64,000 bases of DNA, taken from contig JAAFJM010000006.1 in the NCBI GenBank assembly GCA_013298895.1, positions 27,673 to 91,672 on the forward strand, read 5' to 3'. Of the stretch, positions 2,523 to 56,215 are shown in pieces. The translations under genes were made by a program, and so were the position numbers. Under the pieces are notes generated by a model. The model made no database searches. It was not told the origin of the DNA and saw nothing but the letters and a program-made list of their open reading frames with translations. This DNA is from Bacteroidota bacterium. GTDB lineage: Bacteria > Bacteroidota > Bacteroidia > UKL13-3. Position 1 is the first letter of the stretch, and every line of letters begins with the position of its first letter.

Positions 2523-3707
2523 TTATACTAAATCTAAATTCTTTAAAATAATTTCAATTCCAATATTCAATTCATTTTTGCTTATCGTTAAGGGAGGTAC
2601 TATCCTTATAGAGCTATTGGCATATAAAAACCAATCAATAATTAATCCATCTGCCAAACATAACTGACATAATTTTAAGGTTTGCTCAAAATTATCTAAT
2701 TGTGCAGCAAGCATTAAACCTTTTCCACGTATTTCTTTTATTTTGGGGTGAATTAGATTTTCTCTAATAAAATTTTCTTTATCAGGTATTTTATTTATCA
2801 AATCAAGGTTTTCAATTTCAATTAATCCAGCCAATGCAGCTGCAGCTACCACTGCATGTCCACCAAAGGTGGTTATATGCCCCAAAATTGGATTGTCTGT
2901 AAACACATGCATCATTCGTTTTGAGGTGATAAATGCACCAATGGGCATACCTGCTCCTAGTGCTTTTCCCAATAATAAAACGTCTGGAACAATATTCCAA
3001 TGTTCAAATGCAAACATTTTCCCTGTTTTTCCAATTCCGGCTTGTATTTCATCAAAAATGAGCAATGCACAATTTTCTCTACATTTTTGTTGCAACGCAC
3101 TCAGAAATTCAATGGTTGGTTCTATATATCCTGCTTCACCTTGGATGGTTTCTATAATGACACATGCTGTTTGTTTGTCAATAATTTTTAAACTTTCAAT
3201 ATTGTTAAACTCTATAAATTCTATATCGGGTAATAGAGGACGATAAGGTTGTGTGTAATATTCATTACTGTTTAAACTTAAAGCAGCATGTGTACTGCCA
3301 TGATAAGCATTTTTGCAAGCAATTATTTTTGATTTTTTTGTAACACGTTTAGCTAATTTTAAGGCTCCATCTGTGGCTTCTGCGCCCGAATTTACTAAAT
3401 ATACGCAATCTAAATTTTCGGGTAAATAGTCTGTTATTTTTTTTGCTAATAATGCTGTAGGCTCCTGAATAAACTCTCCATACACCATTAAGTGAAGATA
3501 TTTGTCTACTTGGTTTTTTATAGCTGTCTTTACAGCTTCATTTCCATGACCTAAACTGCTAACCGAAATTCCCGATATGAAATCTAAATATTTTTTACCA
3601 GTTGAATCGTATAAAAACACACCTTCAGCTTTCGAAACTTCTAGCATAAGTGGGAAATTAGTTGTTTGTGCCTGATGTGAAAGAAATAATTGTCGGTTTG
3701 TAAGCAT
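2523..3707 (-). CDS. Class III PLP-dependent aminotransferase (acetylornithine aminotransferase family)
   Basis: NSGAEA, YHGST, ETIQGEAG, FDEIQAGIGKTG and LGKALGAG (PLP lysine) motifs. Confidence 0.9.
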   Translation of the reverse strand: MLTNRQLFLSHQAQTTNFPLMLEVSKAEGVFLYDSTGKKYLDFISGISVSSLGHGNEAVKTAIKNQVDKYLHLMVYGEFIQEPTALLAKKITDYLPENLDCVYLVNSGAEATDGALKLAKRVTKKSKIIACKNAYHGSTHAALSLNSNEYYTQPYRPLLPDIEFIEFNNIESLKIIDKQTACVIIETIQGEAGYIEPTIEFLSALQQKCRENCALLIFDEIQAGIGKTGKMFAFEHWNIVPDVLLLGKALGAGMPIGAFITSKRMMHVFTDNPILGHITTFGGHAVVAAAALAGLIEIENLDLINKIPDKENFIRENLIHPKIKEIRGKGLMLAAQLDNFEQTLKLCQLCLADGLIIDWFLYANSSIRIVPPLTISKNELNIGIEIILKNLDLV

Positions 3708-3908
3708 GTTGCAAATTAATTGAAAGTATCGGAAAATTTATAGACATAACTAATGCTGACAATAGTCAATATTAATAGTGACCGAGTGATTATTTTGTAC
3801 ACCACATTCAAATTAATTTTGAGTATCAAATAAGTAAAACTTATAACATAATTTTAAATCCCAATGTGTTTTTACTTATAATATTGTATTTGTAAAATCT
3901 TGACTATA

Positions 3909-4736
3909 ATGATAAATAAAATTCTAGTACCAACCGACTTTTCTGAAGTTGCAAATAATGCGTTGCAGTATGCAATAAGTTTGTCGTTAAAAATTAATGC
4001 AGAAATTCATCTTTTGTATGTTAAGAATGTTCCATTGGTTGATAGTTCTTACCCTGATACAATTTATCAAAGCTATATGAGTGAAATTGATGATTATACT
4101 ACAGATAGATTTGCTCATTTAAAAAATAGTACTTTGGAAATGAGTGGCGTAAAATATGTAACTCATTCGGCTTTTGGATTCATTAATGATGAAATTCAGG
4201 AGTTTACCAACCACAACAAAATTGATTTAATCATATTAGGTACAACTGGAGCAAGTGGTATTCAGGAAGTACTGATAGGTAGTAATGCTGCTTCTGTTGT
4301 TGCTAAATCTGAGGTCCCTGTTTTAGTAATTCCTCCATCGGCAAAATTTGAAGAGATAAAACATATTGTATATTCAAGTGATTTCAACGAGCCCGAATTT
4401 CCAGCTTTATCTCGTTTGGCATATTTTGCAGATTTATATAACGCTGAAATTAGTATTTTACACGTTAAATCTGAATTTGATAATTATTTTGATGAAGAGC
4501 ATAACTTTTTTGTAAAAAATAAAGATCAAATAGCTTTAAACAACTGGAAAATTGTGAAAGTAGAGGAAATAAGCAATGTTATAGATAGTATAAATAGTTA
4601 TGTAGAGAAAGAACACACTAACTTACTAGTTATGGCTAAGCACAATCGGAATTTCTTTGATAGATTATTTCACAGAAGTTTAAGTAAACAAATGGCTTAT
4701 CACACCAAAATTCCTTTATTGGTTTTAAATAAATAA
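3909..4736 (+). CDS. Universal stress protein (tandem Usp domains)
   Basis: KILVPTDFS N-terminus, LGTTGASG...IGSNA, and C-terminal IPLLVL; ATG at 3909 preferred over TTG at 3900. Confidence 0.92.
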   Translation: MINKILVPTDFSEVANNALQYAISLSLKINAEIHLLYVKNVPLVDSSYPDTIYQSYMSEIDDYTTDRFAHLKNSTLEMSGVKYVTHSAFGFINDEIQEFTNHNKIDLIILGTTGASGIQEVLIGSNAASVVAKSEVPVLVIPPSAKFEEIKHIVYSSDFNEPEFPALSRLAYFADLYNAEISILHVKSEFDNYFDEEHNFFVKNKDQIALNNWKIVKVEEISNVIDSINSYVEKEHTNLLVMAKHNRNFFDRLFHRSLSKQMAYHTKIPLLVLNK

Positions 4737-52430: not shown

Positions 52431-54182
52431 ATGCACAGAACACATACCTGCGGAGAACTTAGAATTACTGATATTAACACCACCGTTACCTTGAGTGGTT
52501 GGTTGCAAAAAAGCCGCGATTTAGGCGGAATGACTTTTATTGATTTACGCGATAGATATGGCATTACGCAATTGGCTTTTAATATGGAAACCAATGCAGC
52601 TATTTGCGAAAAAGCACGCAAATGTGGCCGTGAGTTTGTATTAAAAGTTACTGGTAAAGTAATAGAACGCAGCAGTAAAAACGCCAATATTCCTACTGGC
52701 GAAATTGAAATAGAAGTAACGGAATTTGAAATTTTAAACGAAGCGCAAACTCCTCCGTTTACCATTGAAGATAATACTGATGGTGGTGATGATTTGCGTA
52801 TGAAATATCGTTATTTAGATATTCGCAGAAAACCTGTTCTTGATAATTTATTGTTGCGCCATAAAATGAGTCAACAAACTCGTGTTTATTTAGATGCACA
52901 ACAATTTACCGAGGTTGAAACTCCAGTTTTAATTAAATCAACTCCCGAAGGTGCACGCGATTTTGTGGTGCCAAGCCGCATGAACCAAGGACAGTTTTAC
53001 GCTTTGCCACAATCGCCACAAACTTTTAAACAATTGCTAATGGTAGCTGGTATGGACAGATACTACCAAATAGTAAAATGTTTTAGAGATGAAGATTTGC
53101 GTGCCGACCGTCAACCAGAGTTTACACAAATTGATTGCGAAATGAGCTTTGTGGAACAAGAAGACATTTTAAACATGTTTGAAGGCTTGGTAAAACATTT
53201 GTTTAAAAATGTAAAAGGTGTTGAAATTGATACTTTGCCAAGAATGACCTTTGCCGATGCCGCAAAATATTATGGTTCTGATAAACCTGATACAAGGTTT
53301 GAAATGAAATTTGTGGAGTTAAATGAAATAACCAAAGGTAAAGGTTTCCCTGTTTTTGATAATGCAGAATTGGTTGTAGGAATTTGTGCCAAAGGTTGTG
53401 CTGAATATACCCGCAAACAGTTAGATGAATTAACTGAGTTTGTTAAACGTCCTCAAATTGGCGCAACTGGTTTGGTTTATGCTAGAGTAAATGCTGATGG
53501 TTCGGTAAAATCATCGGTAGATAAATTTTACGATGAAACCACTTTAAAAAAATGGGCCGAAGCTATGAATGCAGTTCCTGGCGATTTGTTATTAATAATG
53601 GCTGGCGCAACAGATAAAACCCGCAAAGCATTGTGCGAATTACGTTTGGAAATGGGAACCCGCATAGGTTTACGTAATCCTGATGTGTATTCATGTTTAT
53701 GGGTAATTGATTTTCCATTGTTAGAGTTTATTGAAGAAGAAGGCCGTTGGTTTGCAATGCATCATCCTTTTACTTCACCAAAACCTGAAGATATAGACCA
53801 TTTAACTAATGGCGATTACGCCAAAGTAAGAGCCAATGCTTACGATATGGTTATAAATGGAGTAGAAGTGGGCGGAGGTTCTATCCGTATTTTCGATAAA
53901 ACACTGCAAGGCAAAATGTTTGAAGTATTAGGTTTTACAAAAGAAGAAGCGCAAACTCAATTTGGATTTTTAATGAATGCTTTTGAATATGGTGCACCAC
54001 CACATGGTGGAATTGCATTTGGTTTCGATAGGTTATGTTCACTTTTTGGAGGCGAAAATTCTATCAGAGATTTTATAGCTTTCCCTAAAAATAACTCAGG
54101 TCGCGATGTAATGATTGATGGCCCAAGCCCAATTGATCAAAAACAATTGAATGAGTTGGGAATTAGTGTTAATAGTTTATAA
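52431..54182 (+). CDS. aspS: Aspartate--tRNA ligase
   Basis: [56 protein letters not shown]. Confidence 0.99.
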
Positions 54183-54195
54183 ATAATTGAACATG

Positions 54196-54232
54196 AAAAA
54201 AGCCGAACAAATTGCATTTGTTCGGCTTTTTT
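54196..54232 (+). terminator. Intrinsic terminator after aspS
   Basis: AAAAAAGCCGAACAAAT-TGC-ATTTGTTCGGCTTTTTT. Confidence 0.88.
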
Positions 54233-54350
54233 GTTTACGATTGATTGAAAATAACGTAGGTTTAAGTCTTGTTTTTTATTATTAAATTTTATTATTAATA
54301 TTTTATGCTTAATATTAATAAATTGATATTTAAGTATTTGCAAGTTTTAT

Positions 54351-54398
54351 TTTTGTCAAATACGGAATTGGATTCCGTATTTGACAAATTTTATTATA
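54351..54398. repeat. 48-bp direct repeat, copy 1, containing a palindrome with 17-bp arms
   Basis: TTTGTCAAATACGGAAT-TGG-ATTCCGTATTTGACAAA at 54352-54388, followed by TTTTATTATA. Confidence 0.95.
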
Positions 54399-54408
54399 CA
54401 TTTGTTTT

Positions 54409-55569
54409 ATGATTCAGAGGGTAGCTTCAACTAAAATAAAACAACTGGCTAAGAAATTTCCAGCTATTGGTTTACTTGGTCCTAGGCAATCGGGTAAAAC
54501 TACTTTGGCTAAAGAATTATTCCCTAAAAAGCCATACATTAGTTTCGAAAATCAGGATAATGTAATATTAGCCATGAGCGATCCTCGTGCATTTTTAACT
54601 AAGTATAAAACAGGTGCCATTTTCGATGAAATACAGCGTGTACCTAAATTGCTTTCATACATGCAAGGCGTGATAGACTCACAACCTAATAAAGTGGGTT
54701 TATTTGTAATTACAGGCTCGCAAAATCTATTATTATTAGAAAGTGTTTCCCAAACATTAGCAGGTCGTATTGCATTTATTCATTTATTGCCATTTAGTAT
54801 TGCGGAATTGGCTACCAGCAAATTTTCAACTCAAAGTTTAAATAAGTTGATTTTGAATGGTGGCTATCCACGTTTGTATGATAAAAAAATTAGCCCTCCT
54901 GATTTTTATCCCAACTACTTACTCACTTACGTAGAACGAGATGTAAGGCAAATAAAGAATATTGCCAATTTGAGTTTGTTTCAAAGATTTTTGAAAATTT
55001 GCGCAACCCGTGTTGGGCAAGAAATAAATTACACATCAATAGGCAACGATACTGGAGTTGACCAAAAAACAGTAATGAGTTGGTTTGGAATTTTAGAAGC
55101 TAGTTTTATTGCATTTAGGTTGCAGCCATTTTATAATAATTTAGGCAAACGCATTACCCAAATGCCAAAACTTTATTTTTACGATACAGGTTTATGTTGT
55201 TCATTGCTCGAAATTGACAACGAATCTCACGTAAACACCCATCCACTGCGTGGCTCATTGTTTGAAAACTTAATTATTTTGGAATTACTAAAAAAACGAT
55301 TGAACAACGGACAACGAAGTAATTTGTATTATTGGAGAGAACGTTCAGGGATTGAAATTGATATTTTAATGGAGCAAGCATCGCAAATTGTGCCAGTTGA
55401 AATAAAAACTGCCACTACGTTTAATAGTGATTTTTTGAAGGGAATTAATTATTGGAAAAAGTTAAATCCATCAATCAAAAATTCATATTTGGTTTACACT
55501 GGAAAGGCCTCAGCAATTGATAATACTGATATTCTAAACTGGAAACAAATTATAGATATAAAAAATTAG
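54409..55569 (+). CDS. AAA-family ATPase with DUF4143 region (ATPase, winged helix and PD-(D/E)xK-like C-terminal domain)
   Basis: Walker A GPRQSGKT, Walker B IFDEIQ, ITGS, LAGR, GGYP, PKLYFYDTGL, FEN, YYWR, EIDIL...PVEIK. Confidence 0.92.
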   Translation: MIQRVASTKIKQLAKKFPAIGLLGPRQSGKTTLAKELFPKKPYISFENQDNVILAMSDPRAFLTKYKTGAIFDEIQRVPKLLSYMQGVIDSQPNKVGLFVITGSQNLLLLESVSQTLAGRIAFIHLLPFSIAELATSKFSTQSLNKLILNGGYPRLYDKKISPPDFYPNYLLTYVERDVRQIKNIANLSLFQRFLKICATRVGQEINYTSIGNDTGVDQKTVMSWFGILEASFIAFRLQPFYNNLGKRITQMPKLYFYDTGLCCSLLEIDNESHVNTHPLRGSLFENLIILELLKKRLNNGQRSNLYYWRERSGIEIDILMEQASQIVPVEIKTATTFNSDFLKGINYWKKLNPSIKNSYLVYTGKASAIDNTDILNWKQIIDIKN

Positions 55570-55591
55570 TGTAATTTATTTTTGAATCAAC

Positions 55592-55639
55592 TTTTGTCAA
55601 ATACGGAATCTGATTCCGTATTTGACAAAAATTATTATA
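55592..55639. repeat. 48-bp direct repeat, copy 2, containing a palindrome with 19-bp arms
   Basis: TTTTGTCAAATACGGAATC-T-GATTCCGTATTTGACAAAA at 55592-55630, followed by ATTATTATA; 44/48 identical to copy 1. Confidence 0.95.
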
Positions 55640-55723
55640 AGCGTGAAATTTTGGATTTATAATTTATTTGATGAAATTCTTCAGTTTTAATAAAAATCAA
55701 TTAAAGTTTATTTTATTTACAAC

Positions 55724-56215
55724 ATGAAAAAACTATTCTTTCTTTTAGCCTTTTTCTCTTTTCAGTTTGTAAAAGCACAAACTAGTGATTCCATCTATGT
55801 TCAGGTACAAGTTGCTCCCGAATATCCGGGTGGTGAAAATGCCATGTATGAATTTATTAGTAAAAATGTTACTTATCCAGTCAAAGAAAAAGAAAATGGT
55901 ATTACTGGGAGAGTCGCTGTTAGATTTGCGGTAATGCAAGATGGGAGCATTAACAATATTGAAATTCTAACTAAAACTCCAGAAGGCTTTAATCAGGAAG
56001 TTATTAGAGTTGTTAAATTAATGCCCAAATGGAAGCCAGGTATTCAAGATGGAAGAGCAGTTCCTGTATACTTCACTTTGCCAGTTTCTTTTCAGTTAGA
56101 CGATAATACCAAACCCATTAAACCTAAATCGCGAGACAAGGCAAATGTTGTTGGCTTCTTTGGAATTGCCTTCGGAATTGTTATTGGAATATTAATTTAC
56201 AAACTTGTTAGGTAA
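55724..56215 (+). CDS. TonB C-terminal domain protein
   Basis: PEYPGG...YP...GITGRV.V.F.V..DG...EVIRVV..MPKWKPG.QDG..V.V.FTLPVSF. Confidence 0.88.
   Translation: MKKLFFLLAFFSFQFVKAQTSDSIYVQVQVAPEYPGGENAMYEFISKNVTYPVKEKENGITGRVAVRFAVMQDGSINNIEILTKTPEGFNQEVIRVVKLMPKWKPGIQDGRAVPVYFTLPVSFQLDDNTKPIKPKSRDKANVVGFFGIAFGIVIGILIYKLVR

Follow-up and report, generated by a model that had tools for sequence, protein, structure and literature searches.

The locus raises the question of why a single gene for a putative ATPase-nuclease should lie between two nearly identical copies of a long palindrome. From the letters of the 64,000-nt stretch of Bacteroidota DNA that was analysed (the window), it had been proposed that the palindrome is the recognition site of the encoded protein, the unit being either a cassette that inserts or excises or a pair of operators that loops the gene. 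The explanation that we favour, and to which we give an even chance of being right, is that the gene is bracketed by two private hairpin-capable sites, both of which its winged-helix domain would read: upstream an autoregulatory operator, downstream a second anchor under selection. Judged from comparative sequence data, the palindromes most likely serve the protein itself as docking sites and are not the ends or scars of a jumping element, since both copies are almost unchanged across many related bacteria.

Table 1 Features of the bracketed gene and its immediate context (window coordinates)
Feature	Position	Strand	Details
Upstream 48-nt repeat	54351..54398	.	Palindrome core 54352-54388; 17-nt arms (54352-54368 / 54372-54388); centre TGG
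386-aa AAA_14 + DUF4143 gene	54409..55569	+	Pfam, PADLOC, invariant residues, AlphaFold2, fold matches
Downstream 48-nt repeat	55592..55639	.	Palindrome core 55592-55630; 19-nt arms round single central T; centre CTG
aspS intrinsic terminator	54196..54232	+	Perfect 17-nt G+C-containing stem (100%), then T run; context, outside the unit

A repeat search recovered the direct repeats that had been reported to flank the gene, 92% (44/48) identical and with a start-to-start spacing of 1241. They sit at the distances claimed, the upstream copy ending 10 nt before the ATG and the downstream copy beginning 22 nt past the stop, and their four differences do fall at the centre and the right edge. The upstream arms are perfect, as described, and the downstream palindrome has 22-nt arms at 95% with 1 nt between them, 19 nt being perfect (palindrome length 37-39 nt per repeat). 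Folded as single-stranded DNA, the two palindromes reach -16.8 and -17.7 kcal/mol (z -10.2 and -7.8), and none of 200 shuffles did as well. An assembly artefact can be discounted as the source of the duplication, since an independent metagenome study yielded a 3235-nt contig that covers 54150-55784 at 43 differences. An Rfam search of 54100-55800 gave nine matches at E up to 1, all far under the gathering score. The aspS terminator is also found 3' of aspS in relatives without the unit, and in one relative (G002) it is located after the unit.

The palindrome is private to this gene. The window contains four exact copies of the 17-nt arm, two in each palindrome; with up to 3 mismatches allowed the expectation is 0.56, and 1 of 100 shuffles reached 4. 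The 3.6-Mb assembly that serves as the reference genome of the window (G000) holds the exact arm at these 4 places only, and thus the report of no further copy extends from the window to the genome, which has two palindromes, both at the gene. Single arms with 2 mismatches occur at 3 other places in the assembly, and the reversed control pattern at 2. The same genome encodes one DUF4143 gene, and the palindrome was not found in a viral contig collection.

Linkage between site and gene is strict. Among 61 relatives, palindrome and orthologue occur together in all 14 genomes that bear the orthologue, each with exactly two palindromes that both flank the gene, and the palindrome is absent from 46 of the 47 relatives without it. 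In a set of 119 genomes from the same bacterial family the palindrome is present in 44, and 31 of the 43 inspected have both copies round the gene; these genomes are kin, and the counts overstate independence. One copy is missing from 3 of 34 complete loci (G077 and G076 keep only the upstream copy, G115 only the downstream one), and thus the downstream copy is dispensable in some genomes. Three further genomes (G006, G091 and G084) carry a solo palindrome without the gene.

Comparison of five cross-genus orthologues with the reference demonstrates purifying selection on both copies. Codon third positions are 0.43-0.53 identical and ungapped flanks 0.19-0.39, against 0.88-1.00 for the palindrome arms, upstream and downstream; for the downstream repeat taken by itself the arms are at 0.88-1.00 and the flanks at 0.19-0.75. 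We aligned 36 upstream and 36 downstream copies (alignment A2) and used 76 palindromes for the column and covariation counts. Eighteen columns are invariant, the same set upstream and downstream, and the 3-nt centre varies freely. The arms covary: of all cells 90.9% are paired, both partners change in 10 of 21 pairs, and the covariation score was unmatched in 500 shuffles (0/500). Pair 9-37, for example, is A-T in 41 cases, T-A in 34 and unpaired in 0. In four genomes (G066, G075, G121 and G072) non-conserved complementary positions differ between the two copies of the same genome. The nested TTTGWCAAA quasi-palindrome, which had been singled out within each arm, does not stand as a meaningful sub-site, with 0 pairs changing on both sides and the motif broken whenever columns 5 or 6 vary.

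The position of the upstream copy suggests what it could do. The sequence TACATTTG (54398..54405, + strand) matches the Bacteroidota -7 promoter box, TAnnTTTG. From the end of this box to the start codon the distance is exactly 4 nt in 14/14 orthologues and in 40/82 family genes, so that the mRNA is expected to be leaderless; as a control, a box lies within 10 nt of the start in 50 of 1302 ORFs of the reference genome. The palindrome ends 9 nt upstream of the box; counted from the A of the ATG, the upstream core reaches from about -57 to about -21. By sequence position, the private palindrome overlaps the putative core promoter, its upstream copy covering the -33 region of a leaderless promoter. 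No -7 box follows the downstream palindrome. The TTGACA within the arms matches a -35 hexamer; Bacteroidota promoters differ from the sigma-70 type, and a sigma-70-type promoter scan returned 6 matches where 9.3 were expected and is hence uninformative. A single 181-nt RNA-library contig covers 54918-55098, too little to claim transcription.

The protein is a plausible reader. Pfam assigns AAA_14 (E 5e-25, 88.4 bits, cut-off 27) and DUF4143 (E 2.3e-51, 174.1 bits, cut-off 28.1) and no other domain, including no HUH/Y1 transposase, and the PADLOC model PDLC04790 for PDC-S01 matches residues 1-368 (E 4.5e-96). The AAA_14 ATPase occupies residues 18-134, with Walker A at G24-K30 and the acidic pair D73-E74, the winged helix about 188-258, and the DUF4143 PD-(D/E)xK nuclease 176-334. 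In 50 aligned family members the Walker residues G24, G29, K30, D73 and E74 are invariant, and so are E286, D318, E331 and K333, which bears out the nuclease signature recognised in the original prediction. The winged-helix stretch is the best conserved part of the protein (mean column conservation 0.935, 50/71 columns invariant in 34 orthologues). An AlphaFold2 model (pLDDT 92.1) was matched by Foldseek to archaeal AAA+ proteins (2fna, 2qen), to Orc1/Cdc6 on origin DNA (2qby, E 3.7e-06; TM-scores low, 0.29) and to Can2/Cdn1; by sequence, the PDB gave no match at E up to 1. The fold matches suggest that the protein holds the parts needed for site reading, an Orc1/Cdc6-like AAA+ ATPase and a winged helix. 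A homodimer prediction (two copies, alignment A1) scored 0.00, weighing neither way on oligomerisation.

If the protein reads its own palindrome, relatives of the gene should have palindromes of their own, and many do. A match between the upstream and the downstream flank scoring at least 22 was found at 16 of 66 non-orthologous family loci, against 3 of 1288 control ORFs of the reference genome, one of which is the DUF4143 gene itself. An upstream palindrome scoring at least 12 is present at 43 of the 66 (null 38/1288). Most other relatives have a private palindrome upstream only; twin palindromes of their own type occur in a second paralogous lineage and at no fewer than three further loci. 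A second orthologous group has twins of the CCCGAAAWTTGTCAGTT type and is syntenic across at least 6 genera, at 64-99% identity. No twin was found at six homologues from other phyla, plasmids or a phage-labelled record, so the bracket is no requirement of the AAA_14 + DUF4143 family.

The proposal that the palindrome is the protein's own recognition site is thus most likely correct, because the site is private to the gene, linked to it in 14/14 genomes and gene-specific in homologues; the alternative of a pair of operators fits the anatomy. That the encoded protein is the reader is inferred from linkage, and repression on binding and cooperation between the two sites are likewise inferences. 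The Orc1/Cdc6-like AAA+ ATPase, with its winged helix and PD-(D/E)xK nuclease, would read both private cis-sites sequence-specifically. Because the upstream site lies over the -33 region of the leaderless promoter, protein bound there would silence its own, potentially toxic, gene. The downstream site would be a second anchor retained by selection, and an ATP-dependent oligomer may hold both ends of the gene, as a loop or as a pair of roadblocks that also insulates it from neighbouring transcription. Complementarity at arm positions that are not conserved would not follow from a symmetric dimer on duplex DNA alone, and therefore hairpin formation or homogenisation of the arms has to be added to the model. 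In the version that we prefer, both sites would form intrastrand hairpins or cruciforms in vivo often enough to keep the arms perfectly complementary.

The first alternative, which we regard as unlikely, takes the palindromes for the termini or recombination sites of a mobile or selfish cassette with a single gene. Such a cassette would enter as palindrome-gene-palindrome and could leave solo palindromes behind. Entry could be, for example, through a Campbell-type crossover between a circle and a solo palindrome, or through cutting of a hairpin or cruciform by the cassette's own nuclease. The wider family is horizontally mobile (a 51% identical homologue lies on a Wolbachia plasmid, and homologues occur in 387 plasmid records), the palindrome is patchy within the bacterial family (44/119 genomes), and within one genus the unit takes four arrangements relative to aspS, tonB-like genes and uvrA. 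One genome (G034) has a second copy mirrored about the palindrome (135/144 identical). A search for an empty aspS-tonB interval yielded no true empty allele, the five gene-less genomes of the same genus having other neighbours after aspS. A comparison of occupied and empty sites succeeded for the only usable pair: between G002 (occupied) and G016 (empty) homology resumes at the outer edge of the downstream palindrome and the empty site has no palindrome, with a left boundary that is fuzzy. The solo palindromes in G006, G091 and G084 also fit such a cassette, but that in G006 retains a promoter remnant, and is thus a decayed upstream copy rather than a clean recombination product.

Several observations weigh against activity of such a cassette in this lineage, as originally suggested. 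The protein tree tracks genera (11 label changes, where the minimum is 8 and the shuffled mean 24.1; g1 monophyletic at 100/99), aspS and the gene diverge in step (80-82% versus 83-84% across genera), there is one unit per genome, and the viral contig collection yielded no copy. The remark that no recombinase is present also stands, none being found within about 12 kb, a stretch occupied by aspS, the gene of a TonB_C protein, carB and further housekeeping genes. Nor was there a clean joint of an excised circle: no joint links the two palindromes in contigs of four public runs (assembled contigs, in which starts, ends and rare forms are not visible). The central spacers, TGG and CTG, are ill-suited to crossover within the spacer, and both copies have been retained long after any insertion. 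The tree and the absence of a nearby recombinase indicate that the lineage is passed on vertically, not hopping, and the mobile-cassette reading is weakened accordingly; the unit may nonetheless have originated by cassette insertion or tandem duplication, given its discreteness in the one occupied/empty pair and the three solo palindromes. In the four public runs many short contigs share the palindrome only and then continue into other sequence. Two joints between opposite strands (54232/54388 in X7; 54393/55469 in X5, depth 5.4, six differences in 42 letters) were set aside as probably due to other organisms or to the palindrome itself.

We consider it distinctly improbable that the palindromes act through structure only, as insulating hairpins without a dedicated sequence reader. 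The upstream hairpin would then terminate or block incoming transcription, and the downstream one would be a terminator or would stabilise the 3' end. Arm complementarity is what covaries, both copies fold strongly, and a simple scan lists both as terminator-like; palindromes of the second lineage begin at the stop codon and end in T runs, and G077, which lacks the downstream copy, has a canonical terminator after the gene. Structure-only elements normally drift in sequence, however, and the 76 copies share 18 invariant columns at a divergence that has saturated synonymous sites. The stems go from T-rich to A-rich and lack a 3' T run on either strand. Columns 5-21 contain 9 G-T and 18 other mismatches, which shows no preference for G-T pairing. 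In G002 the downstream palindrome is followed at once by a canonical terminator, and with the conserved -7 box as the promoter the upstream copy would not be transcribed.

A more elaborate reading, which we think a shade less probable again, is that the ATPase-nuclease recognises the twin palindromes as extruded hairpins or cruciforms and not just as duplex. On this reading DNA structure would gate the bracket: the AT-flanked palindromes would be extruded when supercoiling or replication changes (for example, in phage infection). Extrusion would then release or activate the protein, or both cruciforms would be resolved by its PD-(D/E)xK domain, freeing a 1.24-kb hairpin-ended or circular copy of the gene.

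Very unlikely, in our estimate, is that a local or tandem duplication of the promoter palindrome left the downstream copy behind as a neutral remnant, kept similar by occasional gene conversion only. As expected for a copied promoter piece, the direct repeat of the reference genome extends 10 nt beyond the palindrome toward the would-be -7 box, and the box itself is missing downstream; duplications about the palindrome do occur (G034), and copies differ at a mean of 1.7 of 34 arm positions within genomes and 3.2 between genomes. Yet the downstream arms hold their cross-genus identity in surroundings at random level, 23 of 36 downstream copies are perfect over the 17 inner pairs with a single mismatch in the other 13, and the same layout is kept in the second paralogous lineage. 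In several genomes the upstream and downstream copies differ from each other at covarying positions and in their centres, and gene conversion is therefore not frequent. A genome-wide REP/BIME repeat is ruled out, the exact arm being confined to the two palindromes of the 3.6-Mb assembly.

Among known systems the protein itself resembles PDC-S01 (COG1373; AAA_14 + DUF4143), through the profile match, both Pfam domains and the solitary gene described for PDC-S01, which is a candidate defence system only. In the portion of the source available to us, PDC-S01 ranks fourth in frequency among the defence candidates of prokaryotes, at about 39,500 instances, and is described as an ATPase fused to a PD-(D/E)xK domain (PMC12988326). 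One representative, assayed in E. coli B against T7, T5 and T4, was not among the four protecting systems according to the accessible part of that report (bioRxiv 10.1101/2024.09.26.614923), and the parts of the published PDC-S01 accounts at hand make no mention of cis-palindromes. A short, private and strongly conserved DNA site is now available as a candidate ligand of a PDC-S01 protein and can be synthesised for testing; in Bacteroidota both flanks of the gene retain it, and its arms stay complementary. Should the protein bind these sites, this would be a new layout of self-control, in which a toxic effector represses its own gene and grips it at either end, and would give a route to finding what releases the protein. 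Cutting of the folded form would make the system still more unusual, and structure-gated reading, if true, would define a new kind of self-contained element and provide the first mechanistic handle on a very common uncharacterised defence candidate.

Palindromic autoregulatory operators are familiar from defence genes, as in the C-protein/C-box pairs of restriction-modification systems, where, as at this locus, a private palindrome lies on the promoter of a potentially toxic nuclease gene and co-varies with it. Unlike in those systems, the presumed reader is the effector itself and not a separate small regulator, and the site is about 40 bp long with perfect arms, complementarity at non-conserved positions and a selected second copy behind the gene. 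The AAA+ plus winged-helix fold (2qby) likens the protein to archaeal Orc1/Cdc6 initiators, whose inverted-repeat binding sites adjoin the protein's own gene and an AT-rich stretch; in contrast to these, a nuclease domain is fused, the sites bracket the gene and not an unwinding element, the locus shows no sign of origin function, and TM-scores are low (0.29). A single gene between hairpin-forming palindromes that are recognised by its own product is also the plan of RAYT/REP units and IS200/IS605 ends, but the locus lacks an HUH/Y1 transposase, its palindrome is undispersed (two per genome) and inheritance is vertical. Integron attC cassettes are likewise single genes bounded by imperfect palindromes, which act as folded single strands with conserved structure; the present gene, in contrast, has no integrase nearby and forms no array, and its sites are short and nearly perfect, share their sequence, and in one case overlap the gene's own promoter.

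On either side of the 386-aa gene (Pfam domains AAA_14 and DUF4143) stands one copy of a 48-nt direct repeat; each copy is in turn palindromic, its arms pairing perfectly over 17 or 19 positions. On re-checking, the coordinates and counts of the original prediction for gene and repeats were all correct. The window, which is low in G+C, comes from contig C56 of the G000 assembly (3.6 Mb, 90 contigs), in which there is a single DUF4143 gene. A type IX secretion sorting domain in a neighbouring protein places the organism in the Bacteroidota, and the public runs containing this stretch are biofilm and freshwater metagenomes. Searched for genome-wide, as originally proposed, the palindrome has only the two gene-flanking copies; the exact 17-nt arm is confined to them in the entire assembly, which rules out a genome-wide REP, and occurs four times in the window against 0.56 loose matches expected. 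Single-strand folding of the copies gave -16.8 and -17.7 kcal/mol (z = -10.2 and -7.8). An assembly artefact as the source of the duplication is countered by a 3235-nt metagenome contig from an independent study, which includes both palindromes and has 43 differences.

Coordinates of the features discussed (window positions unless another sequence is named)
Feature	Position	Remarks
aspS	52431-54182	
Stretch covered by the independent metagenome contig	54150-55784	
aspS terminator	54196-54232	
Upstream and downstream palindromes (48-nt direct repeat)	54351-54398 and 55592-55639	44/48 identical
386-aa gene	54409-55569	sole gene between aspS and the TonB_C gene
Sigma-70-type promoter match	55573-55600, minus strand	palindrome arm TTGACA, TAAATT 16 nt on; score 10/12; directed into the gene's 3' end
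TonB_C gene	55724-56215	single in G000 and G014
Solo palindrome L047 (G006, C23)	885-946	
Solo palindrome L131 (G091, C50)	1801-1831	
Solo palindrome L133 (G084, C5)	1801-1831	
Mirrored gene copy L022 (G034, C44)	1-300	leftward from the same palindrome; contig ends within
ORF L148 (G000, C7, outside the window)	53423-54427	flanks share a 39-nt direct repeat with mismatches; no Pfam match
ORF L149 (G000, C45, outside the window)	219249-222122	perfect 34-nt flank direct repeat; weak fibronectin type III match
Homologue L142 (plasmid pWALBA2, NZ_CP101659.1)	2769-3914	Wolbachia endosymbiont; 51% identity

The sigma-70-type match is probably without meaning in a Bacteroidota host. In several relatives (L010, L012-L014, L016) a second TonB_C paralogue (45-53% identity) precedes the first, so the region is often rearranged.

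A family member (E up to 1e-20) was found in 34 of 61 related genomes, and an orthologue (82-100% identity) in 14, the window's own included. In all 14 the gene has the palindrome on each side; 46 of the 47 orthologue-less genomes have none. The one exception, G006 (77% complete), has a solo palindrome and a promoter remnant but no gene. Across the bacterial family the palindrome is present in 44 of 119 genomes, 43 of which were classified (G142, with two copies, was left out). Both copies surround the gene in 31 (14 from the 61 relatives and 17 others); two genomes (G063, G068) have two copies on two contigs, each by a partial gene, and three (G094, G132, G122) have one copy by a gene cut at a contig end. 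Only the upstream copy is present in G077 and G076 and only the downstream copy in G115, G061 has a diverged upstream palindrome belonging to a 47% paralogue, and in three genomes (G006, G091, G084) a solo palindrome is present but the gene is not. In G006 the solo copy retains part of the promoter in decayed form (62 nt, 87% identical to the upstream copy), and it adjoins a gene that in G011 and G012 is the convergent neighbour of aspS. The metagenome-assembled contigs of G063, G068, G094, G122 and G132 (L135-L141) end in the gene or no farther than about 100-400 nt from a palindrome, which suggests strain variation or extra copies beyond the assemblers' resolution.

Several observations favour the mobile cassette of the original prediction. 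G002 (occupied) and G016 (empty) have both flanks in common; their homology restarts just where the downstream palindrome ends on its outer side, and G016 lacks a palindrome at the empty site. The unit takes four arrangements within one genus (aspS-terminator-unit-tonB; aspS, other genes over about 1.3 kb, unit; aspS-unit-terminator; aspS-tonB-tonB-unit-uvrA), solo palindromes occur in three genomes, and G034 has a second, mirrored copy. Other observations speak against mobility: the protein tree tracks genera (g1 monophyletic at 100/99; label changes number 11, where 8 is the minimum and shuffling gives a mean of 24.1), and there is one unit per genome. Divergence of aspS and the gene is also in step, the genes around the unit have housekeeping roles and include no recombinase, the palindrome was not found in viral contigs, and no excision joint was seen in public-run contigs, which are contig-level data only. 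That the palindromes are the ends of a cassette is in our view unlikely. We conclude that the unit's lineage is an old resident, vertically inherited and often lost, and that its cassette-like edges are a trace of its origin or of local rearrangement. The mirrored G034 copy repeats the promoter together with the ATG and the first 35 codons (135/144 nt identical); either the sequence was duplicated in inverted orientation around the centre of the palindrome, or the assembler fused two strain variants.

Five orthologues from other genera have identities to G000 of 0.43-0.53 at codon third positions, 0.19-0.39 in ungapped flanks, and 0.88-1.00 in the arms of the upstream and downstream palindromes. 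By these comparisons, selection acts on both copies. Of the 76 palindromes that were aligned, 36 are upstream copies, 36 downstream copies, three solo copies and one belongs to a paralogue; 18 columns are invariant, and the three central bases are freely variable. With the arms modelled as a 21-pair stem, standard pairs fill 90.9% of 1575 stem cells, changes occur on both sides at 10 pairs, and the observed covariation score was reached by none of 500 shuffles; shifting the partner by 1-3 columns lowers pairing to 25-51%. Pair 9-37 is A-T in 41 sequences, T-A in 34 and unpaired in none, pair 15-31 is A-T in 62, T-A in 7 and C-G in 2, and pairs 5-41 and 6-40 alternate among T-A, C-G and A-T. 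The centre flips from TGG in G000 to CCA in G004 and G014, with upstream flanks 97% identical. Covariation is absent from the nested TTTGWCAAA motif, which we do not regard as a meaningful sub-element.

Column 9 is the same in both copies in 27 of 31 genomes. In G066, G075, G121 and G072 a genome's own two copies differ at covarying positions, yet each is still symmetric; the preserved trait is therefore complementarity within each palindrome, atop invariant sequence. Mixed sites at pair 9-37, expected if a symmetric dimer merely tolerated either base, do not occur. Hairpin-templated copying is known for quasi-palindromes. Either a folded form (hairpin or cruciform) matters or such copying homogenises the arms, and both require hairpin formation in vivo. 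G-T pairs (9, against 18 other mismatches) are not favoured and thus do not point to RNA over DNA. Hairpins acting by structure only, as insulators, could show the same complementarity, but the invariant columns speak against them; we consider this reading quite improbable. We give very little credence to a downstream copy that is a scar maintained by conversion, and a neutral duplication scar would be gone at the time scale of the third-position identities.

PADLOC assigns the protein to PDC-S01, a single-gene phage-defence candidate (E 4.5e-96). Walker A/B residues G24, G29, K30, D73 and E74 and nuclease residues E286, D318, E331 and K333 are invariant in 50 aligned family members. The confident AlphaFold2 model (mean pLDDT 92.1) includes a winged helix of three helices and two strands at about residues 188-258. 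Foldseek matched the N-terminal two thirds to archaeal AAA+ ATPases (2fna, 2qen), STAND proteins and Orc1/Cdc6 initiators on origin DNA (2qby), and the C-terminal part to the PD-(D/E)xK nucleases Can2 and Cdn1; a sequence search against solved structures gave no match.

A TAnnTTTG match, which we take to be the Bacteroidota -7 promoter box, ends exactly 4 nt 5' of the start codon in 14/14 orthologues and has the same placement in 40/82 family genes; within 10 nt of the start it occurs in 50/1302 control ORFs of G000. A box so close to the ATG implies that the mRNA is leaderless. On this reckoning the upstream palindrome runs from about -57 to -21 and covers the -33 region, and the downstream one has no -7-type box behind it. 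Our preferred reading, which we hold with about even confidence, is that both palindromes are private sites, able to form hairpins, which the winged-helix ATPase-nuclease encoded by the gene itself recognises. The upstream copy would be an autoregulatory operator on the leaderless promoter, with bound protein and RNA polymerase competing for the -33 region, and the downstream copy would be a second anchor under selection.

The layout recurs with other sequences at homologues, whose flanks were surveyed as originally proposed. The 61 relatives have 83 family loci, of which 80 were used; the remaining three lacked gene bounds or had flanks that were too short. As control served 1288 G000 ORFs of at least 300 aa. 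Upstream palindromes scoring at least 12 occur at 43/66 non-orthologous loci and 38/1288 controls, those scoring at least 15 at 31/66 and 14/1288, and upstream/downstream flank matches scoring at least 22 at 16/66 and 3/1288 (one being the window gene); the loci are kin, so these counts overstate independence. By eye, 14 of the 16 have twin palindromes: CCCGAAAWTTGTCAGTT-type at L031-L035, L065, L067, L068, L070 and L074 (variant at L063), ATCCTTGTAAATT-type at L029 and L060, and ACCGTGAAAATT at L079. The CCCGAAAWTTGTCAGTT-type lineage is its own orthologous group, syntenic in seven genomes of the genus, with 64-99% identity over at least six genera. Homologues of 44-52% identity have the upstream palindrome only, with the same GGAAT-N3-ATTCC core. 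Six homologues that come from other phyla, from plasmids or from a record labelled as phage have no twin. The Moraxella bovis plasmid homologue has an upstream palindrome of 21 pairs, and those on Salipiger and Agrobacterium plasmids (L144, L145) instead have ttcaatcggtcgg-like and tttaaatcagacg-like direct repeats, three or four in number, in the 130 nt before the gene.

The 52% homologue L023 (G041, C4) has a short upstream palindrome, TTGGAATCAGATTCCAA. A direct repeat that is not palindromic (about 40 nt) begins some 95 nt ahead of its ATG and recurs directly after the stop, which resembles a long target duplication. L148 and L149 are the only other long-flank-repeat ORFs among the 1288 in G000. 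L142, the closest plasmid-borne homologue, lacks a twin palindrome and adjoins an Rpn-family recombination-promoting nuclease gene; its presence in an alphaproteobacterial endosymbiont points to cross-phylum transfer of the subfamily.

DUF4143 is listed among PD-(D/E)xK families of unknown function (PMC3424549); in one paper a DUF4143-related REase figures among effector domains, and one tabulates a Thermus gene induced by plasmid DNA. Among defence candidates PDC-S01 is ranked fourth by frequency, with counts of 9986 in archaea and 29,494 in bacteria (PMC12988326), and one representative was outside the 4/8 candidates that protected E. coli B from T7, T5 or T4 (bioRxiv 10.1101/2024.09.26.614923). 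Titles and abstracts on COG1373 include none on cis-elements, and in the literature searched we found no printed account of palindromes around DUF4143, COG1373 or PDC-S01 genes. The palindrome is an immediately testable candidate ligand for the protein. Self-operators of defence genes are known, and the unit would be of the same kind, a new variant in a very abundant, uncharacterised family.
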